NCBI GenBank assembly: GCA_905250115.1
Contig: CAJNOI010000031.1
Span: 1 to 46,143, forward strand
Length of the DNA stretch: 46,143 nt
Reading direction: 5' to 3'
Source of the DNA: Adineta steineri
Taxonomy: Eukaryota
Shown: positions 12,190 to 39,469 of the stretch, piece by piece
Position numbering within the stretch: the stretch's first letter is position 1
How the letters are laid out: each line of letters opens with the position of its first letter
Position numbers and translations under genes: made by a program
Notes under the pieces: model-generated
Told to the model about the DNA's origin: nothing
Databases searched by the model: none
What the model saw: only the letters and a program-made list of their open reading frames with translations

Positions 12190-12425
12190 ATTGTAAAGAG
12201 AAAAGAAAAAAATGAATGTATTAATAAATTATATTCTTTTAAGAGTGGTTATCTTTTATTTTATGTATATATATATATATCTTTAAACGAAAAAAATTCT
12301 TATCATACATTATTTATTCTATCTTACTTGAGACATTGTGTATAAGTTCTCTATAGATTTCTTTTTCTTTACATTACATCTATAGAAATTTCGTTCGTGT
12401 CTATAGCAAGTTATCAAATAAAAAA

Positions 12426-13909
12426 ATGTCAGGAGTAACAACAACAATCACACCAACTGGTTTGATATAATATATATATATATGTTCGATAAAGATCTGA
12501 AGATTTTTATTTTTTTTTGTTAGGAACACAACAGAATAAATTTGAAGGTGATGGAGTTCCGTTCAAAGGCAAACTTATTGGTATGAAAATTGAAAGAAAA
12601 ATAGATTCATTATCTTCCCTTTCTTTCTTATTTTATAAAATAAAGGAATGGAAGATGTACCAGTTGATCGTGATGAAAAAGCATGTCTTGATTCATTGTT
12701 TAAATTAAAAGCTGTTGCAAATGCTCGCAAAGAACATAAACAAAAACTTCAATTGAATTTAACTATGGCCGGAATTAAAGTTTATGATGATACAACAAAA
12801 GTAAGAAGGAAAACAAAGTCTATTTAAATTATTTATTATATTATTAATTAGGTTATAATTGCTTCTCATGAAGTTGAACGTATATCATTTGTTGTTATGG
12901 ATCCACGTGATCAACGTGCCTTTGGTTATATTTATAATACGAGTGATGATCGTCATCAATTTTGGGCTATTAAAACTGAACGAACAGCAGCAACAACTGT
13001 ATATGCACTTAAGGAACTTTTTGAAATAGCCTTTGAACAATTTACTAATGCTGAAAAAGCAAATCAAACGACATCTGCGCCAGTATCACCTGCAGACGTA
13101 ACTGTTTCAATACAGGTTAGGATCAATAAAATCTAAATTTATTTGTAAGTTTTTTTTCTTCTTCTAGCAAACACCTTCACAATCTACTCCTGTTCCTACA
13201 CCACAACCATCACTACAACCTCCACCACCACCGATACCTCAACGAACAGAGCCTGCAGCTGTAGGTCAAACATTTCTTTATTTTTATTTTTAATAAATTT
13301 TATTTTCTAGGCATCTCTTCTTGGTGATATCTGGGGAGACAGTCCAACAGTAACGTTGCCTCAACCACCAATACAAACAATTCAACAACCACCGATACAA
13401 ACAGTTCAACAACCTCCAACACAAACAGTTCAACAACAATCAATACCTGAGCTCGATTTGTGGGGTAATAATGAACCTGCTGTACCTGTTCAACAACCAG
13501 CACCACGTGTTGAAGATGTAAGTTTCTTTCTTCTAAATGATTTTACTAATTCATAAAAAGAAGAAAATTTACTAATACTAATTAATACTATTTTCAGCCT
13601 CTTGGTGATATGTTTGGTTTACCTGGATCACCATCACAACCACCACCGCCACCAGCACGTCCAACACCTCAACAACCAACATCTACTACTGGTACTAATG
13701 ATTTCTTGTCAATGTTTGCTCCTGCTCAACCAACACCAAATGTGAATACCAATATGTTTGCGCAATCAGTTCAACAAACACCTTTTATTCCTCAACAACA
13801 GCAACAACAACAACAAAATTTTATGAATCCAACACCTATCATGCCTGTGTCTCCACCAACTGTAACAAATTCAACTAGTGGCTTTGATTTACTTGGAGAC
13901 TTTTCATAA
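12426..13909 (+). CDS. Disabled (Dab1/Dab2-like) PTB-domain adaptor. Exons 12426..12459, 12524..12580, 12646..12800, 12852..13115, 13168..13260, 13311..13517, 13598..13909
   Basis: Spliced product: MSGVTTTITPTGTQQNKFEGDGVPFKGKLIGMEDVPVDRDEKACLDSLFKLKAVANARKEHKQKLQLNLTMAGIKVYDDTTKVIIASHEVERISFVVMDPRDQRAFGYIYNTSDDRHQFWAIKTERTAATTVYALKELFEIAFEQF... This matches the Dab PTB domain (FKGDGVRYKAKLIGIDEV..DKLCQDSMMKLKG...HKQKIFL..GIKIFDEKTG...[21 protein letters not shown]...HRFVAIKTAQAAEPV). It is followed by a Pro/Gln-rich low-complexity tail (PPIQTIQQPPIQTVQQPP, Q8 run). Seven exons, all GT-AG, with consistent phases. Confidence 0.85.
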
Positions 13910-30872: not shown

Positions 30873-33402
30873 TTAATATCGACTAATATCTCGTCCAAAT
30901 ATGTGTGTACGAACCCAATCAAATGCAAGTAAAGTTTTTGTTCGGCCAGTAAACATTTCTGTAAAATAAAATGATTTCCATAAATAAGCAGCACTACGAC
31001 CTGATAATGGTTGTAAATTAAATAAATCAAAAACTGGTTTTGAACCAGTAAAATCAAGTACTGCTGAATCACCGCCAACGTATGCTAATGCACCCATATG
31101 TTTATATTGAAATGGTTTTAAATTTTGTTGTTTAAAATCAGTTGATTGAATATCAGTTACTTGATTAAGTAAATGAGCGACATAACGACCTTCTTGAGAT
31201 GCAACTTGAGCTGTTGCTGGTAATGCACGAATTTTTTGATCAGCTTTTTCCAAAATAGCACGAAGTGCAGTTAAAGTGACATAACCAGATTTTTCTTTAT
31301 CAGCTTCTGCAAAAGCTTTTTCAATACTCTTCGAAAATATTTCAAGCTAGAAAGAAAGATGTCAAAAAAATATTGCTAACAGTTTATGTTAATATAAGCT
31401 TCTTTTCAAATAAAGCACCCAGAGAAGACATACTGTATATAGTACCTATGTGTACTTGTATAACTCTGATATGAATTAATATCGAAAAAATATATATATT
31501 TGAATACCTGTGGAAATTCTGTGACTTTCTTTTCAACTAATGTTTGAAATTGATTGAGATCAAGTGAACCTCGATGTTGTGTATCTGCTTCTTCGAATAA
31601 TAATTGAATTTGATCAACTAATTTTGGTTGTGCAATTGTAGCACAATCACCAAGAGCAAAGATTGAACCATCTTCAACACCTTTCACACGTAAATATCGA
31701 TCAGTTAAGAGACCCATTCGATTGGTTTGAATAGTTGAACCAATTATTTCTCGAATTCGATTTGTTAATGGTCGTGCTTTAATACCCGTTGCCCAAACAA
31801 CAACTGAACATGGAATAGATATACGTTCTTCGGAACCTTTTAATTGAATAATAACTTCTCGTTGTTTAACTTCTTTAACAAACGTATTCATTAATACATC
31901 AATATTTTCACGACGAAAATGTCTTTCTGTATAATCACTAATTTTTTTATCCTGAAAATAAAAATAATATAAATGATTTTTCAAATAATAAAACGATGAC
32001 AAACCATCATAGATAACACATGGTCAAGAGCTTCGATTAATGTTATTTTTACATCGCTAGAAACAAGACGTGGAAAATAATGTTGAAGATCTTCGCGAAC
32101 TAAATCAGCAAGCTAAAAATATATACATAGAAGATTTTCATTTCAATATAAACGATCTCTTTGAGTCTCTCTAAACTCCTTCGACTCTATTACACTACAA
32201 ACATACTTCTGCAGCAAATTCTACACCTGTTGGTCCACCTCCAACAACAACAAAATGTAAAAGACGTTTTCTTTCTGCTATTGTTTGTGTTGGTGTCATA
32301 GCTGATTCAAATGCATCACTAATTGCTGAACGAATACGTCGAGCATCAAGAAGTTCTTTAAGAAAATGTGCATGTTCTTCAACACCTGGAGTATTAAATG
32401 TATTATTTTCTGATCCAACAGCAACAACAAGTATATCATATTTCATATCGAATTGTGGTCGTGTTCGAGCTAAATTAGAATTAAAATTTTCTAAAAACAA
32501 GGTTTGTTTTTTTTCAAATTTACCTGAATCTTTAATAATTCTTGATGAAGCACCACTTTCACGCGATGGTGGTGCAACTATTGTTTTAACATCATCACCA
32601 CGTGATACATTTTGTTCTCCATTGTTATTACATGTAATAGTTTTGGCTTTTGGATCGACATTAATACAAGTTGCTTCAACAAATTTAACACGTGGTCCAA
32701 CAAGTGAACGAATAGATTCGATTACAGTACGAGTTTCAACTGTACCGACACTAACAGATGGTAGTAATGGTGTCATTAAAAAATAATTACGTGGTGATAC
32801 ACAAATAACTTCATATTTTTGAGTATCAAGATGTTTTAAAAGTGGTACAGCACCCCAACCTAAAGATCAAAAAATTATTCTAATAAATACCAAACAATTG
32901 AATTAATATATATATAACCTGTTCCAAGAACAACTATACGTGGTTTAGTACCAATTGTTTTATCCGAATCACTCATTTCACTATACCATTTATAACGACG
33001 ATAACCACGATAACTATAAAATGTACCAACACCAACAACAGTAATAATTAAAAGATTTTTTAAACGTCGCTTTAATTTTCCACCTAAAATAAATTGAATA
33101 TATTTTCAAAAAGTGCCCTCTAAGTGCATTCTATATTATTTTTATAAAAATGTTAGAAAATGAACTTTGTACCCTACATTCAATAGTCATATATTTTTAA
33201 ATTTTTTTCCCCTTAAAATAGAAATATTCAAAAAAAATTTAGTTTTTAACATACCAAAAGTTTGCTTGGCTGATTGTCCAGAAAACCAAGCAAGATTTCG
33301 AGTAAGAATTGGTTTTATTTCATTTAATTGTTTAAATGAGATATTTCGATGTGCATTTATTGTTGTTAATTGTTGAAGAAGAAGAGTTGAACGAGAAAAC
33401 AT
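30873..33402 (-). CDS. Type-II alternative NADH:ubiquinone oxidoreductase (NDH-2, NDI1/NDE-like), with a mitochondrial presequence and a C-terminal degenerate EF-hand-like segment. About 6 exons; gene span given
   Basis: Exon 1 MFSRSTLLLQQLTTINAHRNISFKQLNEIKPILTRNLAWFSGQSAKQTFG is presequence-like. The following exons encode ...GGKLKRRLKNLLIITVVGVGTFYSYRGYRRYKWYSEMSDSDKTIGTKPRIVVLGTG-WGAVPLLKHLDTQKYEVICVSPRNYFLMTPLLPSVSVGTVE...HFVVVGGGPTGVEFAAE (two Rossmann GxGxxG motifs), then LADLVREDLQHYFPRLVSSDVKITLIEALDHVLSMM-DKKISDYTERHF...VVWATGIKARPLT...GSIFALGDCATI. This matches yeast NDI1 (ELQDYLPELVDEVRITLVEALPNILPMF..Y..SHF...VLVWATGN...GSIFAIGDCT). The last exon has FAEADKEKSGYVTLTALRAIL...GRDISRY(stop at 30873). 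Confidence 0.85.
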
Positions 33403-34646
33403 ATTGATATGTAAATAAGAATAATTCCTGATTTGATTAAATGAGACTCATTATGTTATAAAAATAGAAAGATAGATAGATAAAAAACATAATAGTTCAT
33501 AGTTTCTATTCGTCAATTTTACCTCAATGAAAATAATAATTTCACTGCCATCTTTCGAAATATTTAATATAAAAATATAAATGGTCAATTAAATGGATTA
33601 GGCCGATTCACTTTCAGTTGGTTGATCTATTTTATACTTTGACTATTTTTTTGCCGTGCCAAAATTTGGTCAAATTGTTTAAAGAAAGTGGATGTGTAGA
33701 AATGATCGTGGTCGAATCTACCCGCTAGAATATGTTACTTAATGATGACCCAGAAATATTTGATAAAATGTGAAATATCAATAATCCTATGCCTTTCTTG
33801 GACTGAAAATAACAATTCTAGTCAATTCTGTATATAAAAAAAAAAGGAAGATAAATAAAATTTATTTTTAATTTAATAATAGAAATTTTATAGATAATAA
33901 ATATTATCTATATTTTAAGTGTTCGAATATTTATAGTGGATTGATATAACTTATGATTTACTTGATAGAATCTATTTTTTATATAGATTAGAATACATAT
34001 GAAAATTTTTTATTTGAGAACATATTCTAGTTGTTATAAAATTTTATGTATTACATAAGCATCAGCTAACAACCTTGATTTATTATTACATAAGATGCTT
34101 TTTGTCATAAGAGACTATCTAAAATAGATCATATAAAGTACAAAATGATTCAAAATAGTATTGTTTATATGAAATTTCTAGTCCAATCGAATAATGACTG
34201 TGCAATGTATCAGTACTGATGTTCGAATCTACCTTCGAGACTAGAGTCAGGGATGTCTCTTTCAGTGGCACATAACTGTTCATGCTCTCGATATATTAAA
34301 TATTCTCAACAATTTGTATCCATACATTCGAAGATTTATATTCTTCAAATGATTTGCTACGAGTTGTTGAACATTTTGATATATTTTATCACTCGAAATC
34401 TATGCAGAAGAACTTAATTTTTTTACACAGCAATATCAATGTCTATTGATACAATATCATACACAGTCAGTTCTTTAAACAAGATTTTATTGCATAAATT
34501 ATAATTTAAAGCACAAGTAATCTATTTATTAATAAGAAATGAAATTTACTAATTTTTTTCTTGGCTAATGACTCGAAATTCCTATTTGTTTGATGTTCAG
34601 CATATAAACATAAATCAGTTTATTTTCCCTCTAAAAATATAAGAAA

Positions 34647-37286
34647 ATGTTTTTCACGATATCAAATGGCGCTTATTTTATCATTGTTATTTGTCATTTG
34701 GAATTTTTTGTTTCGACGATGTTTTTATTTTATCTAATATTTTTGTTATTTTTAAAACAAACTGATGCAAGAAACATTACTGTAATAAGACTTGAAGAAC
34801 TAGCTCCATTAAGTACTAACAATGAGTTGGAAACAATTGCTGCTCAATTCAATCAAAATCCTAATTGGGAATTAGGAAATATGCCTTTGACATTAACTGA
34901 AGAAGAAGAAATTACACCAAATGATCCAGATGCTCCAGAAATATCAAATAAACCTGGTTTAATTAAAACTGGTCATCTTTTTCAACCTGAAGACATGCAT
35001 CCATATAGAATCGATAGAAAAGGCGTTCATCCTCATACTGAACATCATATATTTTTCGTTCGACATGGTGTGACATAAATATAGACATATACATATATAT
35101 TATTAAATTTCTTTTTTAAGGTTTATATTATTATACTGAAGTTGATTCATCTTCACATTTGCTTCGTTATGGAAAATATCAAGCTCGAATGGCAGGTGAT
35201 AAAATTAATGAAATAATTCATAATATATTATCAAGATCCGGACCATTAACGAGACCGATAAAATTAGTATCAAGTACACAAACACGTGCATATGAAACTC
35301 TTTATAATATTCGTTTACAACTTAGTAATAATTTTGAATATGCACCAGAAATTATACAAGATACTGGTCTTACTGAATGCGTGTATGATTATTTTTTCTT
35401 CTAATTGATTTTCAATATATATATATATAAATAAATTATTTATCTTTGATTTTTAGTGATACCAATAGACAACGTTTTCGTTGGCTCTATTTTGTTCGTG
35501 AATATTTACAACCGATTAAATCAAATAAACGTGAACATACAATAACGATTATAGCTAGTCATGGAAATCTTTTAACAACTTTTGATTATATCATTAGTCA
35601 TTTTCTTAGTCAAAATATACCTATGGAAGCTTTTGCTACTTTTCGACTTCCTTTAGGAACAGGAATGAAGCATGCTGAAGTATCATTATATCGTACTATT
35701 GGAGCTGAACGTGTTCATTTTCGAGAGTCTTATAGTATGATTCAAATTCCAATAACAGTTAATCATGCTCATTTAAAAAGAGATTTTTATTATGAATGGG
35801 CTTCTGTACATAAATGTCGAGTAAGTAAAAATTAAACTAATAAAGATAATATCACCTTATGTTTTTCTATTTTAAGTCACAGTATGGTCGAGAAAATATG
35901 AAAAATTATATTCGAGCAGGTATATTAGATAATGTATTTGGTGGAGGTCCTTTTTCTAATAAAATGAAAGATTACGACAGTATTGTTTATTGGGAAATGT
36001 TACAAGAATATGATACACATATATTACCGATGTTAATGCATACTTGTCGTACTTATCTTTATCGTTTACCATTTATTCAAGCAAATACAGATTTTGGTTC
36101 ATTCCATCGTTCAATGTCACCAGTACCAATTCCAGAAACTGAACAAGAACAACGTTCACCATTACAGAAACCAATGGATCGTTTTAATGCTTATAGTATG
36201 CCATTTTTTGTAGACAATGCTATTCAAAAATTTCGAAAAAATCCTGCTCTATATCGAGAACAAATACCACCTGGTGTTGTTCATCCACAATCACGTATAC
36301 TTTTATTTCTAGTTCGACATGATAAGTAGATATTAATTAATTAATTAAATGAAAAAAATATTTCTCTTCTATATTCTACGTATTAATGTCAATACAGGTG
36401 ATGATAGTACATCATATTTAACTCGTCTTGGTATTAATCAAATACGTGGTGTAGTTGATCAAATACATCGTACTATTCATGATTATATGCATAGATTACA
36501 AGCAAATGTTCGTATATTACCGATAAATATAGTAGCTGAACCATCAATTCCATCAGCTGAATCATGTTTTCATGTACGAAATCTTCTATTAAGTGTTGAT
36601 TATTCAGTATCTGAACAAATTACAGATCTTGGTATTCAATTTAATTATTTTCATAAAAGTATAGATCTATTAGAAATTAGTGCATTGATTTAATACATAT
36701 ATTTATGAAAGGATCTCCAAAAGAATTTATGGATTTTCAACGTGTACAAGTTCTTTATTTATTACGTCGTTATCTTGGACCTGATCAAAATGATTCTTCA
36801 CGACCATCATTTCAAGTTCATATTTTATGTGGTGATGGTCGATTATTTTCAGCATTTCGTCAAGAATTAGTCATAGCTAAAATACCTGTTGAACCAGTTC
36901 CAAGATTTGCATCAATATCTGATCCTGGATATAATGCATTAAAACATGCGAATGCATTTTTTTTCGAAGCTATCGATCGTGATGTATTAAGACTTCATGA
37001 AACTATAACTTTAACAGGAGCAAGACAGATTTCAGAAGAGCAAAGAATGGTTACAGATCATTCACTTCTATTACCATCACGTGAATTAAAAAATTGGTTA
37101 CGAAGTTCATCTGGTCCCTGTACATTATCTTATTTTGTTGATAATACCGAACAATTAGTTCAATCAATAGCAAATACAGCTTCTGTTTATCATCAACAAC
37201 TTGCTTTTCTACTTAAAAGAGAATGGCATCCATATCTTGCTGGTATTTCAAACATGTTTTTGCATATTTTCTTCATTGAATTATAA
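34647..37286 (+). CDS. Histidine-phosphatase (phosphoglycerate-mutase-family, RHG-motif) protein with two tandem PGAM-like domains and an N-terminal hydrophobic anchor. Proposed exons 34647..35067, 35121..35382, 35457..35820, 35877..36321, 36398..36658, 36712..37286
   Basis: Domain 1: ...HTEHHIFFVRHG|LYYYTEVDSSSHLLRYGKYQARMAGDKINEI (RHG catalytic His plus the substrate-binding Arg pattern) and ...HTITIIASHGNLLTTFDYIISHFL (second conserved His). Domain 2: ...SRILLFLVRH|GDDSTSYLTRLGINQIRG (RHG restored only if intron 36322..36397 is removed). The phases of all six exons close (2328 nt, 775 aa) provided the fourth intron uses an AT..AG boundary (cat g|ataagtag ... caatacag|gtgatgat). Without that intron the reading frame stops at RHDK (36329). 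Confidence 0.6.
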
Positions 37287-37375
37287 CGAAAATATATTTA
37301 GGATTATTCATTTATGCATGTCGTCTTCATCTTACACTATCAGACACTACTAATATACAAGAAATACAACCAGCG

Positions 37376-37402
37376 GCAGCGGCGGCGGCGGCAGCAGCAG
37401 CT
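37376..37402. repeat. (GCN)n trinucleotide repeat (poly-Ala coding in one frame)
   Basis: gcggcagcggcggcggcggcagcagcagc sits in an otherwise AT-rich region, about 90 nt downstream of the PGAM-like gene stop. It is followed at 37503..37530 by an (ATTT)n microsatellite and at about 37939..37966 by a (TA)n run. Confidence 0.6.
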
Positions 37403-38587
37403 GGTGAAAATGAAGCTACAAATCGATGTGATATACCAGGGACAGCAGCATCAGGAGGACCTTCAGGAGATTGTCCATAAATTGATTTATCGATATTTGC
37501 CCGTTTATTTATTTATTTATTTATTTATTTCTAATATAATACTTATCTAAAATAAATTAACTATAATGAAACTATTCAAATATCTCTTAGTTTTCCTTTT
37601 TTTGTCTAAAATCGAATTTGCATGTCATTATTGTTTATAGTTCATTATATTGTCGAGACCGGAAACATCGCTTTTCTCACGACATGAAATGTCCTTCGAG
37701 TTTGACGACAAAAAAAAAAGATTTGTTGTTGTTATATACCATGATCAAGAGGCGGTAACAAATTAGCCGATTTTTTTCTAAAAAAAATTACGTACACATG
37801 CAAACAATACTATCTTATTTCAAACTCTGTCAATCTCATGTTCATTATTAGTTTCTTTTTCTCAACTATATTTATTCATGGGATGATATAAGACATGTTC
37901 AAGTATCTACAACTATCGTCCATGCAATTATTATCTAGTTAACATATATATATATATATATATATATACACATCTTCTTTCATTCATTTGTGCATCTCGC
38001 GCAATCATCACTAAGAACAAAATGCAAATTTTACTTAATGTAGATTAAAATGAGACTGACATAAAGAAAGAGAACCTTTGCTTGATTATCCTCATCAACA
38101 TCATTCAACGAACACTATACAGTCGTATTGAAGTGACCTTTTCTTTCTTTTCTATTCACAATCTACGCTTTCACATAATCAAGAGCAATCTGTCTGTATA
38201 TATAAGTAAGATTGAAATAATGAATTTTATACTATTTTAATTAGTCTTTCTCTTCAATGAGTTTTGACTAGACGATAAACATACTTTTCATTCTTTTTTT
38301 TTTCTATGAATATAAAAAAGATCTATATATCTGATAGTGTAGTGTACATTAAATGACAAAAGTCGTTCACTTGGGTGATTTCTGTCTTCTAATTAATGTC
38401 TTCAACAGTTATCTATTTGTGCTTGACCGATTTATCAAGGATCAGCCTTAATGAACTACTTGAGAATAACATGCTTTATTCTTTAATATACACTGAAACA
38501 AAAAATTTATTTTTATCTGACATTTTATTAGATTTATAAACCTATACTGTTCATCAGATATCGACTTTGATAATCTTAGTTTTTTCT

Positions 38588-39469
38588 TCATCTAATCTTT
38601 ATAAACAATAATGAATAAAACAAAAAAAAACAAAAAAAAATATTCATTGATAATGTTAGTCGATTAGAACTTTTTGATAATAAAGCACTGATACGTTGAT
38701 GTCTTTGAATATCTAAATAGATAAAAAAAAAAACTTTCGTTGTTTATCAAATAAAATATATCAATCAAATTTTCTTACCTTTTTCAATGATTACTTTGGC
38801 ACTTAATTGTTGACGTTTATAAACACATGTCCATACACCTGTATGAAATATTTGTGCATGTTCAATAATTAAATATGAAGATAATGTATTATTAACGAAT
38901 TTTTTTCTTATATATATATCATGAGGTTTTGTATTATTGATTTGATTTGATACAAAATGCCAAGTTATCAATGATTTTTTATGAGTATCATTCATATCAC
39001 TATTCATTAAAAGACTACAATTTAATTTAATACTTGCGCCTGGTTCAATATAAACATTTGTAGGATAGATCATCATTGGTATTTGTATATGTAAATGTAT
39101 ATAAATACTAACACTTACTTTTCTATTAGCTATTTTACATATATATGTACCTTCATCAGAGAATTTCAATTGATAGATTTCTAATGACCAAAATGAATCT
39201 TTTGATGATGTAGAATAAAATGATATTGAATAACGTTTATCAGTTGTAAATAATTGTTTTCCAACAGCTAATGGCGATGGAAATGACGTTAATGGATCAA
39301 ATTTAAACCATGTTACATGATGTTCACCTAAATCACGTATATGACATGTTAAAATAGCTGTAGACGAAAGATTTGATGTTTGATTATATGTTTCAGTAAG
39401 AATTTGTGGAAATGTGTCAACAGCTGTTGTTATATGTACCATTAAGATAGCTAAAGAAAACGTAAACAA
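38588..39469 (-). CDS. Two-immunoglobulin-domain type I membrane protein (signal peptide, 2 Ig-like domains, C-terminal TM). Exons 38779..39469 and 38588..38712
   Basis: MFTFSLAILMVHITTAVDT is a signal peptide. Ig-like Cys pairs: LTCHIRDLGEHHVTWFK ... DEGTYICKIA and IKLNCSLL...ITWHFV...GVWTCVYKRQ. The ORF ends at the consensus donor AAA G|GTAAGA (38779), and a 66-nt intron joins it in frame to DIQRHQRISALLSKSSNRLTLSMNIFFCFFLFYSLLFIKIR(stop), which contains a hydrophobic TM segment. Confidence 0.55.

Follow-up and report, generated by a model that had tools for sequence, protein, structure and literature searches.

We describe an intron that begins with AT instead of GT in a gene of the bdelloid rotifer Adineta steineri. 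The gene encodes two tandem PGAM5-like histidine-phosphatase domains and occupies 34647..37480 (plus strand) of a 46,143-nucleotide (nt) stretch of contig CAJNOI010000031.1 (assembly GCA_905250115.1), here called the window. Its fourth intron is very likely a genuine, anciently conserved AT-AC intron at 36322-36379 (58 nt, phase 1), in which the other signals are of the U2 type. The observations that bear on this are the sequence itself, its conservation among orthologues, the coding behavior of the 18 nt that follow the AC, and the use of the AT-AC junction in deposited Rotaria sordida gene models. A first-pass annotation of the window had rightly seen that the intron interrupts the Gly codon of the second RHG motif, but had drawn its 3' boundary at the AG at 36396-36397; the comparative evidence favors the AC at 36378-36379.

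Donor, acceptor and coding context of intron 4

All features described here are on the plus strand. Exon 4 reads ...CTA GTT CGA CAT G up to position 36321, and its last seven bases, CGA CAT G (36315..36321), are the Arg and His codons of the second RHG motif and the opening base of its Gly codon. The bases that follow are ATAAGTAG (36322..36329), so that the donor is AT and not GT, as had been noted in the first pass. This 5' splice site carries A for G at +1, while positions +2 to +7 are those of the U2-type consensus GTAAGTAT. If the intron is not spliced, the frame reads RHDK and meets an in-frame TAG at 36327-36329, again in agreement with the earlier description.

The 3' splice site is the AC at 36378..36379, where the intron ends ...TTTCTCTTCTATATTCTAC; it lies 18 bases upstream of the AG at 36396-36397. 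Directly upstream of the AC is a polypyrimidine tract, ATTTCTCTTCTATATTCT (36360..36377). Among the 15 bases that precede the AC, 13 are pyrimidines in the window and 11-15 in the orthologues. Removal of AT(36322)...AC(36379) keeps the frame and gives RHG-INVNTG-DDSTSYLTRLG. The spliced reading is CAT G|GT ATT AAT GTC AAT ACA GGT, with a predicted exon junction CGACATG|GTATTAATG. Removal of 36322-36397, the intron first proposed, does restore the frame as was claimed, and its product is RHG-DDSTSYLTRLG.

Conservation of the splice sites

We compared 17 orthologous sequences, which represent 16 distinct introns. They come from seven Adineta and Rotaria species (A. steineri, A. vaga, A. ricciae, R. 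sordida, R. socialis, Rotaria sp. Silwood1 and Silwood2) and from nine further contigs, namely three assemblies found by profile search and six moss-type metagenome contigs of the Joint Genome Institute (JGI) found by pattern search. The JGI pattern accepted either A or G at +1 and placed no constraint on the acceptor dinucleotide; all six matches were nevertheless AT-AC.

An intron that starts with ATAAGT and ends with AC is present in 17 of the 17 sequences, including a lineage at 42% identity, and the full donor 8-mer ATAAGTAG is identical in 15. The A at +1 occurs both in the window and in a second copy from A. steineri that is 96.65% identical to it. Because all 17 sequences have this A, including two A. 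steineri copies that differ by 3.3%, we exclude the donor G-to-A lesion and the assembly base error, both of which had been offered as explanations in the first pass. The orthologue comparison that it had suggested as a check for GT at this donor yielded no GT but ATAAGT throughout.

The introns are 50-66 nt long and their interiors are rich in insertions and deletions (indels), whereas the intron end ...ATATTCTAC is kept across orthologues. Exon 4 ends with CGACA(T/C)G in 15 of the 17 sequences and with CGAAATG (Arg-Asn-Gly) in A. ricciae and ERZ12293621. In the contig from SRR33465454 (L010, 3425-3481) the AT-AC intron is 57 nt long, starts with ATAAGTAT and has no TAG. It is stop-free in frame, so a prokaryote-style gene caller read through it (P0058); its retention would add 19 residues and would not truncate the protein.

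The segment between the two candidate acceptors behaves as an exon. These 18 nt (36380..36397; GT ATT AAT GTC AAT ACA G) complete the Gly codon, encode INVNT and open the next Gly codon, whose remaining bases are the GT at 36398-36399. The AG at 36396..36397 thus straddles the codons ACA GGT (Thr-Gly). Across the 17 sequences the 20 nt after the AC contain no indels, and the variable columns are 7 of 7 at third, 1 of 7 at second and 2 of 6 at first codon positions. The encoded peptide is G(I/L)NV(N/D/A)TG. The AG itself is replaced by TG or GG in five of the 17 sequences (A. vaga, A. ricciae, ERZ26165376, SRR33465454 and Ga0116229b).

The alignment of the two domains with each other points the same way. 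Domain 2 is 28% identical to domain 1 (BLASTP, E 1e-19). When the AC acceptor is used, VRHG-INVNTGDDSTSY-LTRLG aligns to VRHG-LYYYTEVDSSSH-LLRYG of domain 1 over a gapless stretch of RHG, 12 residues and L(L/T)R(Y/L)G, with a score of 70.5 bits; the AG acceptor opens a gap of six residues and scores 64.3 bits. Since the AG is absent from five of the 17 sequences and the 18 nt evolve as coding sequence, we take the acceptor to be AC and not AG. Of the earlier proposal of a rare AT-AG intron, the rare, non-canonical intron therefore holds and the AT-AG class does not.

Gene models at the junction

Among 54 deposited models of the gene family, four from R. sordida (P0002, P0014, P0016 and P0019) read RHGLNVNTGDEK, with the junction peptide RHGLNVNTG. 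The AT-AC junction is the only possible source of RHGLNVNTGDEK in R. sordida DNA. These models were built with BRAKER 2.1.2 from same-species RNA-seq reads aligned with STAR (PMC7943196).

Other models mishandle the junction in various ways (proteins P0001, P0003-P0007, P0030 and P0035). In the A. vaga reference (CP075497.1; L002, 4001-6777) the gene is split into UJR37133.1 (P0006), which ends ...RHDK, and a following gene of 297 amino acids. The models of A. steineri, Silwood1 and R. socialis skip the RHG strand, and that of A. ricciae skips more. In the Silwood2 and R. magnacalcarata models part of the intron is translated.

Intron type

We classified the intron by the features with which Sheth et al. 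define U2-type AT-AC II introns (PMC1557818). The donor agrees with the U2 consensus G|GTAAGTAT at 6 of 8 intron positions, the only mismatches being at +1 and +8, and with the U12 consensus ATATCCTT at 3 of 8. The intron has the AT and AC ends, the donor fit apart from +1, the pyrimidine tract and the conserved borders of the U2-type AT-AC II class. It does not have the marks of U12-type AT-AC introns, in which the 5' splice site reads ATATCCTT and a TCCTTAAC branch site lies some 10-20 nt before the 3' splice site, with no pyrimidine tract. No TCCTTAAC-like branch site at a conserved distance from the 3' end was found in the orthologous introns compared; in two lineages, a CTAAC branch-like motif precedes the AC by 23-25 nt. 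By its sequence signals, which alone do not decide the spliceosome, intron 4 is a U2-type "AT-AC II" intron.

Removal of the same intron, 36322-36379, by a residual minor (U12-type) spliceosome, as a degenerate or hybrid minor intron, appears unlikely to us. Its AT-AC ends are typical of one U12 subtype, and the loss of minor introns in bdelloids has been reported to be extreme but incomplete, so that the machinery probably persists (PMC10639083). However, the low score of ATAAGTAG against ATATCCTT does not fit such an intron, the candidates resembling TCCTTAAC carry 2-4 mismatches at inconsistent distances, and the strong pyrimidine tract is a feature typically missing from U12 introns. The resemblance to U12-type AT-AC introns is limited to the AT and AC ends and the strong conservation of the 5' splice site; the intron differs from them in having ATAAGTAG rather than ATATCCTT, no TCCTTAAC near the 3' end and a pyrimidine tract.

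Known AT-AC II introns offer a closer match. Those of human SCN4A and SCN5A and of human and fly TAF2 (Wu & Krainer 1997; PMC1557818) share with intron 4 the AT-AC ends and TAAGT at +2 to +6. They likewise have a pyrimidine tract, lack U12 motifs, keep their borders across orthologues and are often mis-annotated by pipelines; conservation of AT-AC II introns in orthologues has been described before (PMC1557818). The class is very small: counts of 15 for human, 6 for mouse and 3 for fly correspond to about 0.003-0.008% of the introns of these species, and neither worm nor Arabidopsis yielded any (PMC1557818). The intron described here differs from the known cases in its bdelloid host, in its lineage-restricted tandem PGAM5-like gene and in its very short length (50-66 nt). 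It differs also in having a paralogous GT-AG intron at the identical codon position of the same gene, and its dependence on the major spliceosome is putative.

How such an intron might be spliced is suggested by experiments cited in PMC1557818, in which G1-to-A mutants were rescued when the last base of the intron was changed from G to C. The mutants, from yeast and human, have the same A(+1) and C(-1) as intron 4 in an otherwise U2-type intron; in contrast to that engineered suppressor pair, the configuration here is natural, fixed and long conserved. From established splicing biochemistry, near-perfect complementarity to U1 and U6 at +2 to +7 would offset the A at +1, and A(+1)/C(-1) would act as the pair known for the rescue of G1-to-A mutants. 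Because it is a G-to-C change at the last base that gives this rescue, the AC, rather than the nearby AG, would be the compatible acceptor. The exons would then join as CAT G|GT ATT..., with the product ...LLFLVRH-G-INVNTG-DDSTSYLTRLG.... Actual splicing at the AT-AC junction in A. steineri is what we infer from these sequence features.

The whole window was also scanned for AT-AC and AT-AG introns on the basis of open reading frames (ORFs). The scan gave 52 AT-AC pairs, compared with 54 GT-AC and 68 AT-TC pairs as controls; the AT-AC count is no higher than that of these nonsense controls, so the scan does not discriminate. Among its candidates, only 36322/36379 had a perfect ATAAGT, 13 of 15 pyrimidines and long flanking ORFs (157 + 103 codons). 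A second AT-AC candidate, at 12578-12520 on the minus strand, was rejected, as its translation is junk and it runs antisense to plus-strand exons. On the plus strand at 12300-12900 there is a small multi-exon gene, with peptides such as MSGVTTTITPTG, FEGDGVPFKGKL and GMEDVPVDRDEKACLDSLFKLKAVANARKEHKQKLQ.

Alternative splice pairs

We enumerated the frame-keeping GT-AG, GC-AG, AT-AC and AT-AG pairs in eight genome sequences. The AT-AC pair 36322/36379 is the sole frame-keeping pair common to all eight, and A. vaga and A. ricciae have no frame-keeping GT-AG, GC-AG or AT-AG option at all.

An AT-AG intron at 36322-36397, giving RHG-DDSTSY as the chief product or in a minor isoform, would keep the frame in the window and in 12 of the 17 orthologues, and AT-AG pairs are known as rare variants of U12-type introns (PMC1557818). 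We nevertheless consider it quite improbable. In addition to the missing AG in five sequences, the indel-free coding evolution of the 18 nt and the six-residue gap against domain 1, only 8 of the 15 bases before the AG are pyrimidines, compared with 13 of 15 before the AC. Moreover, an intron with A(+1) and G(-1) is poorly suited to the second step of splicing (background cited in PMC1557818).

According to the first-pass annotation, no canonical GT donor in the vicinity keeps the frame. This does not hold, as the window contains two frame-keeping GT-AG pairs. One joins the donor at 36295 to the acceptor at 36397 and deletes ILLFLVRHG; the other uses the donor at 36326 and the AG at 36406-36407 and gives RHDN-TSYL. 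Both remove conserved residues and both are unavailable in A. vaga or A. ricciae. The former, a canonical intron at 36295-36397 that removes ILLFLVRHG together with the 18-nt segment, is what the A. steineri, Silwood1 and R. socialis models contain. It keeps the frame in A. steineri and Rotaria and was the gene predictor's choice in most deposited models. We see very little chance that it is real. Its GT is missing in A. vaga (TCACGAAAAC) and A. ricciae (TCAAGAAAAC). The part of the exon that it would skip is conserved at the protein level with variation at third positions, and holds a beta-strand and the RHG that align to domain 1. Its length of 103 nt compares with 53-74 nt for the other introns.

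The absence of splicing, with two genes or a truncated gene ending in RHDK-stop (through a lesion, a pseudogene or an assembly error) and separate translation of the second half, is the least credible alternative. The unspliced reading does stop at the TAG at 36327-36329, as in the A. vaga annotation UJR37133.1, and the downstream ORF has an in-frame ATG at 36349 in the window. However, none of the 17 sequences departs from A at +1, both diverged A. steineri copies included, the A. vaga and A. ricciae introns have no ATG, coding constraint begins exactly at the AC, and both halves are intact ORFs in all lineages. Editing of adenosine to inosine (A-to-I) at +1, which would mimic GT, was dropped, as the evidence on the acceptor favors AC over AG.

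Several points weigh against a U2-type AT-AC intron at 36322-36379 and are collected here. The transcript-level support consists of RNA-seq-guided gene models rather than reads or cDNA. RNA-seq also went into the models of R. socialis, R. magnacalcarata and A. ricciae, yet these leave the AT-AC junction unused, which may reflect low coverage of the gene or a weak hint. AUGUSTUS, presumably also in BRAKER 2.1.2, is not known to predict AT-AC introns without hints. According to one paper, AT-AC had to be explicitly switched on in BRAKER 2.1.0. The spliced junction was not found in JGI metagenome and metatranscriptome contigs, which served as a proxy for cDNA. A minor AT-AG isoform may exist in the 12 of 17 lineages that have the in-frame AG 18 nt downstream. 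Finally, processing by the major spliceosome would be expected from the signals, but sequence cannot decide this, and a few minor introns are reportedly retained in bdelloids (PMC10639083).

The paralogous intron in domain 1

The first RHG motif, in domain 1, is also interrupted by an intron. Intron 1 (35068..35120; GTGTGA...TTTAAG) lies after the first base of the RHG Gly codon, and its position and phase (phase 1) are the same as those of the AT-AC intron. Its termini are GT-AG in A. steineri, A. vaga, A. ricciae, R. sordida and Silwood1, and it has been precisely lost in R. socialis and SRR33465454; no lineage has lost the AT-AC intron. The domain-1 donors vary freely (GTGTGA, GTAAAC, GTAAAA, GTAAAT), whereas the AT-AC donors all agree up to +6, and 15 of the 17 agree up to +8.

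The most economical interpretation is that the intron would be older than the internal domain duplication and that the domain-2 copy would later have switched both of its terminal bases. The pattern also fits an AT-AC intron that would now depend on otherwise optimal signals.

The host gene and its product

The gene has seven exons (34647-35067, 35121-35382, 35457-35820, 35877-36321, 36380-36658, 36712-37242 and 37302-37480) with 826 codons and a stop, and its spliced translation contains no internal stops. The product comprises a hydrophobic N-terminal segment, the two homologous PGAM5-like domains and an Ala-rich C-terminus. The start codon is ambiguous: public models use the ATG at 34719 (MFLFYLIF...), and a start at the ATG at 34647 would add 24 hydrophobic residues. 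The five introns other than intron 4 are all GT-AG, as the first-pass annotation had found, and are 53-74 nt long, a span within which the 58 nt of intron 4 falls. Besides intron 1 they are intron 2 (35383..35456, phase 2), intron 3 (35821..35876, phase 0), intron 5 (36659..36711, GTATAG...GAAAG, phase 1) and intron 6 (37243..37301, GTATTT...TTTAG, phase 1), whose junction PYLAG|LFIY is common to all full-length orthologues. A GT at 36632 was ruled out as the donor of intron 5, since GIQFNYFHK-like residues are kept in the orthologous proteins. The last exon contains a poly-alanine tract (GCN repeat) at 37373-37402. Beside it the length of the Ala/Gly-rich tail differs, with GTAASGGPSGDCP in the window and GTAAAAASGGPSGDCP in A. 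steineri P0001.

With the spliced product as query, protein matches were confined to bdelloid rotifers. The best match was A. steineri P0001, at 96% identity, and identities to the Rotaria and other Adineta orthologues were 52-61%. In Pfam searches His_Phos_1 matched domain 1 only, and the scores of the window model (11.9 bits) and of P0002 (13.7 bits) stayed below the cut-off of 21.7. A profile match in the Protein Data Bank (PDB), to Plasmodium PGAM (3eoz), was marginal (E 0.032). The AlphaFold (AF2) model of the R. sordida orthologue P0002 is poor overall, with a predicted local distance difference test (pLDDT) score of 41.5. Its domain 1, however, reaches pLDDT 55-86 over residues ~80-280 and matches PGAM5 structures (6cnl, 5muf, 3mxo) with a Foldseek E of 8.5e-9 and template modeling (TM) scores of 0.65-0.68. 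Domain 2 has pLDDT < 50 in this model, which is uninformative about it; by BLASTP it is homologous to domain 1 (E 1e-19). The label "tandem PGAM-like" is reasonable on these grounds.

Domain 1 resembles PGAM5 and branch 1 of the histidine phosphatase superfamily in its motifs RHG, S..TRA and SHG and in its predicted fold. The protein differs from the PGAM5 family in its sub-threshold Pfam score, in having two tandem domains with a long linker, and in the absence from domain 2 of both the second catalytic His and the RA arginine. In domain 2 (36380-37242 region), GDG stands for SHG and SA for RA, and RHG is changed to RNG (CGA AAT G|ATAAGT) in A. ricciae (L006, ~3122) and ERZ12293621 (L011, ~938). 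From these substitutions, domain 2 is probably a catalytically dead pseudo-phosphatase domain. The second RHG motif had been called catalytic in the first pass; the motif is indeed present, but GDG for SHG and the RNG of two lineages make its catalytic role doubtful.

The G+C content of the window is 26-31%, and an Rfam scan of the window gave no matches. Positions 33193-38900 align to another A. steineri contig (GCA_905332045.1, L003) with 96.65% identity and 27 gap openings. This divergence of 3.3% is typical of that within bdelloid genomes, and the window represents a diverged haplotype or another isolate. Synteny is kept across bdelloids on both sides of the gene, in the flanks of contigs L001-L011. 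Upstream, on the minus strand (~33193-33400), is an NDH2-like gene (Pyr_redox_2 + EF-hand), and downstream, from ~38760 and also on the minus strand, is an immunoglobulin (Ig)-domain gene; both were placed via the alignment to L003.

Implications

We searched the literature on AT-AC and other non-canonical splice sites in bdelloids and rotifers and found only surveys of minor introns, none of which reports this intron. It adds one case to an intron class that is known but very rare, and reveals no new mechanism.

A more speculative idea, to which we give about one chance in ten, is that the AT-AC intron is kept as a slow or regulated splice that serves as an isoform switch, or that bdelloids hold many U2-type AT-AC introns missed by annotation. 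If there were an isoform switch, retained transcripts would stop at the conserved TAG (within ATAAGTAG, 15 of 17 sequences) and would encode a single-domain, catalytically competent PGAM5-like phosphatase, and spliced transcripts would add the degenerate second domain.

The intron provides a clear and deeply conserved U2-type AT-AC case from another animal phylum. Its GT-AG paralogue at the same codon is a built-in comparison, which illustrates a two-base compensatory switch of the intron termini. The junction breaks gene prediction, and similar errors are likely elsewhere in bdelloid annotations.

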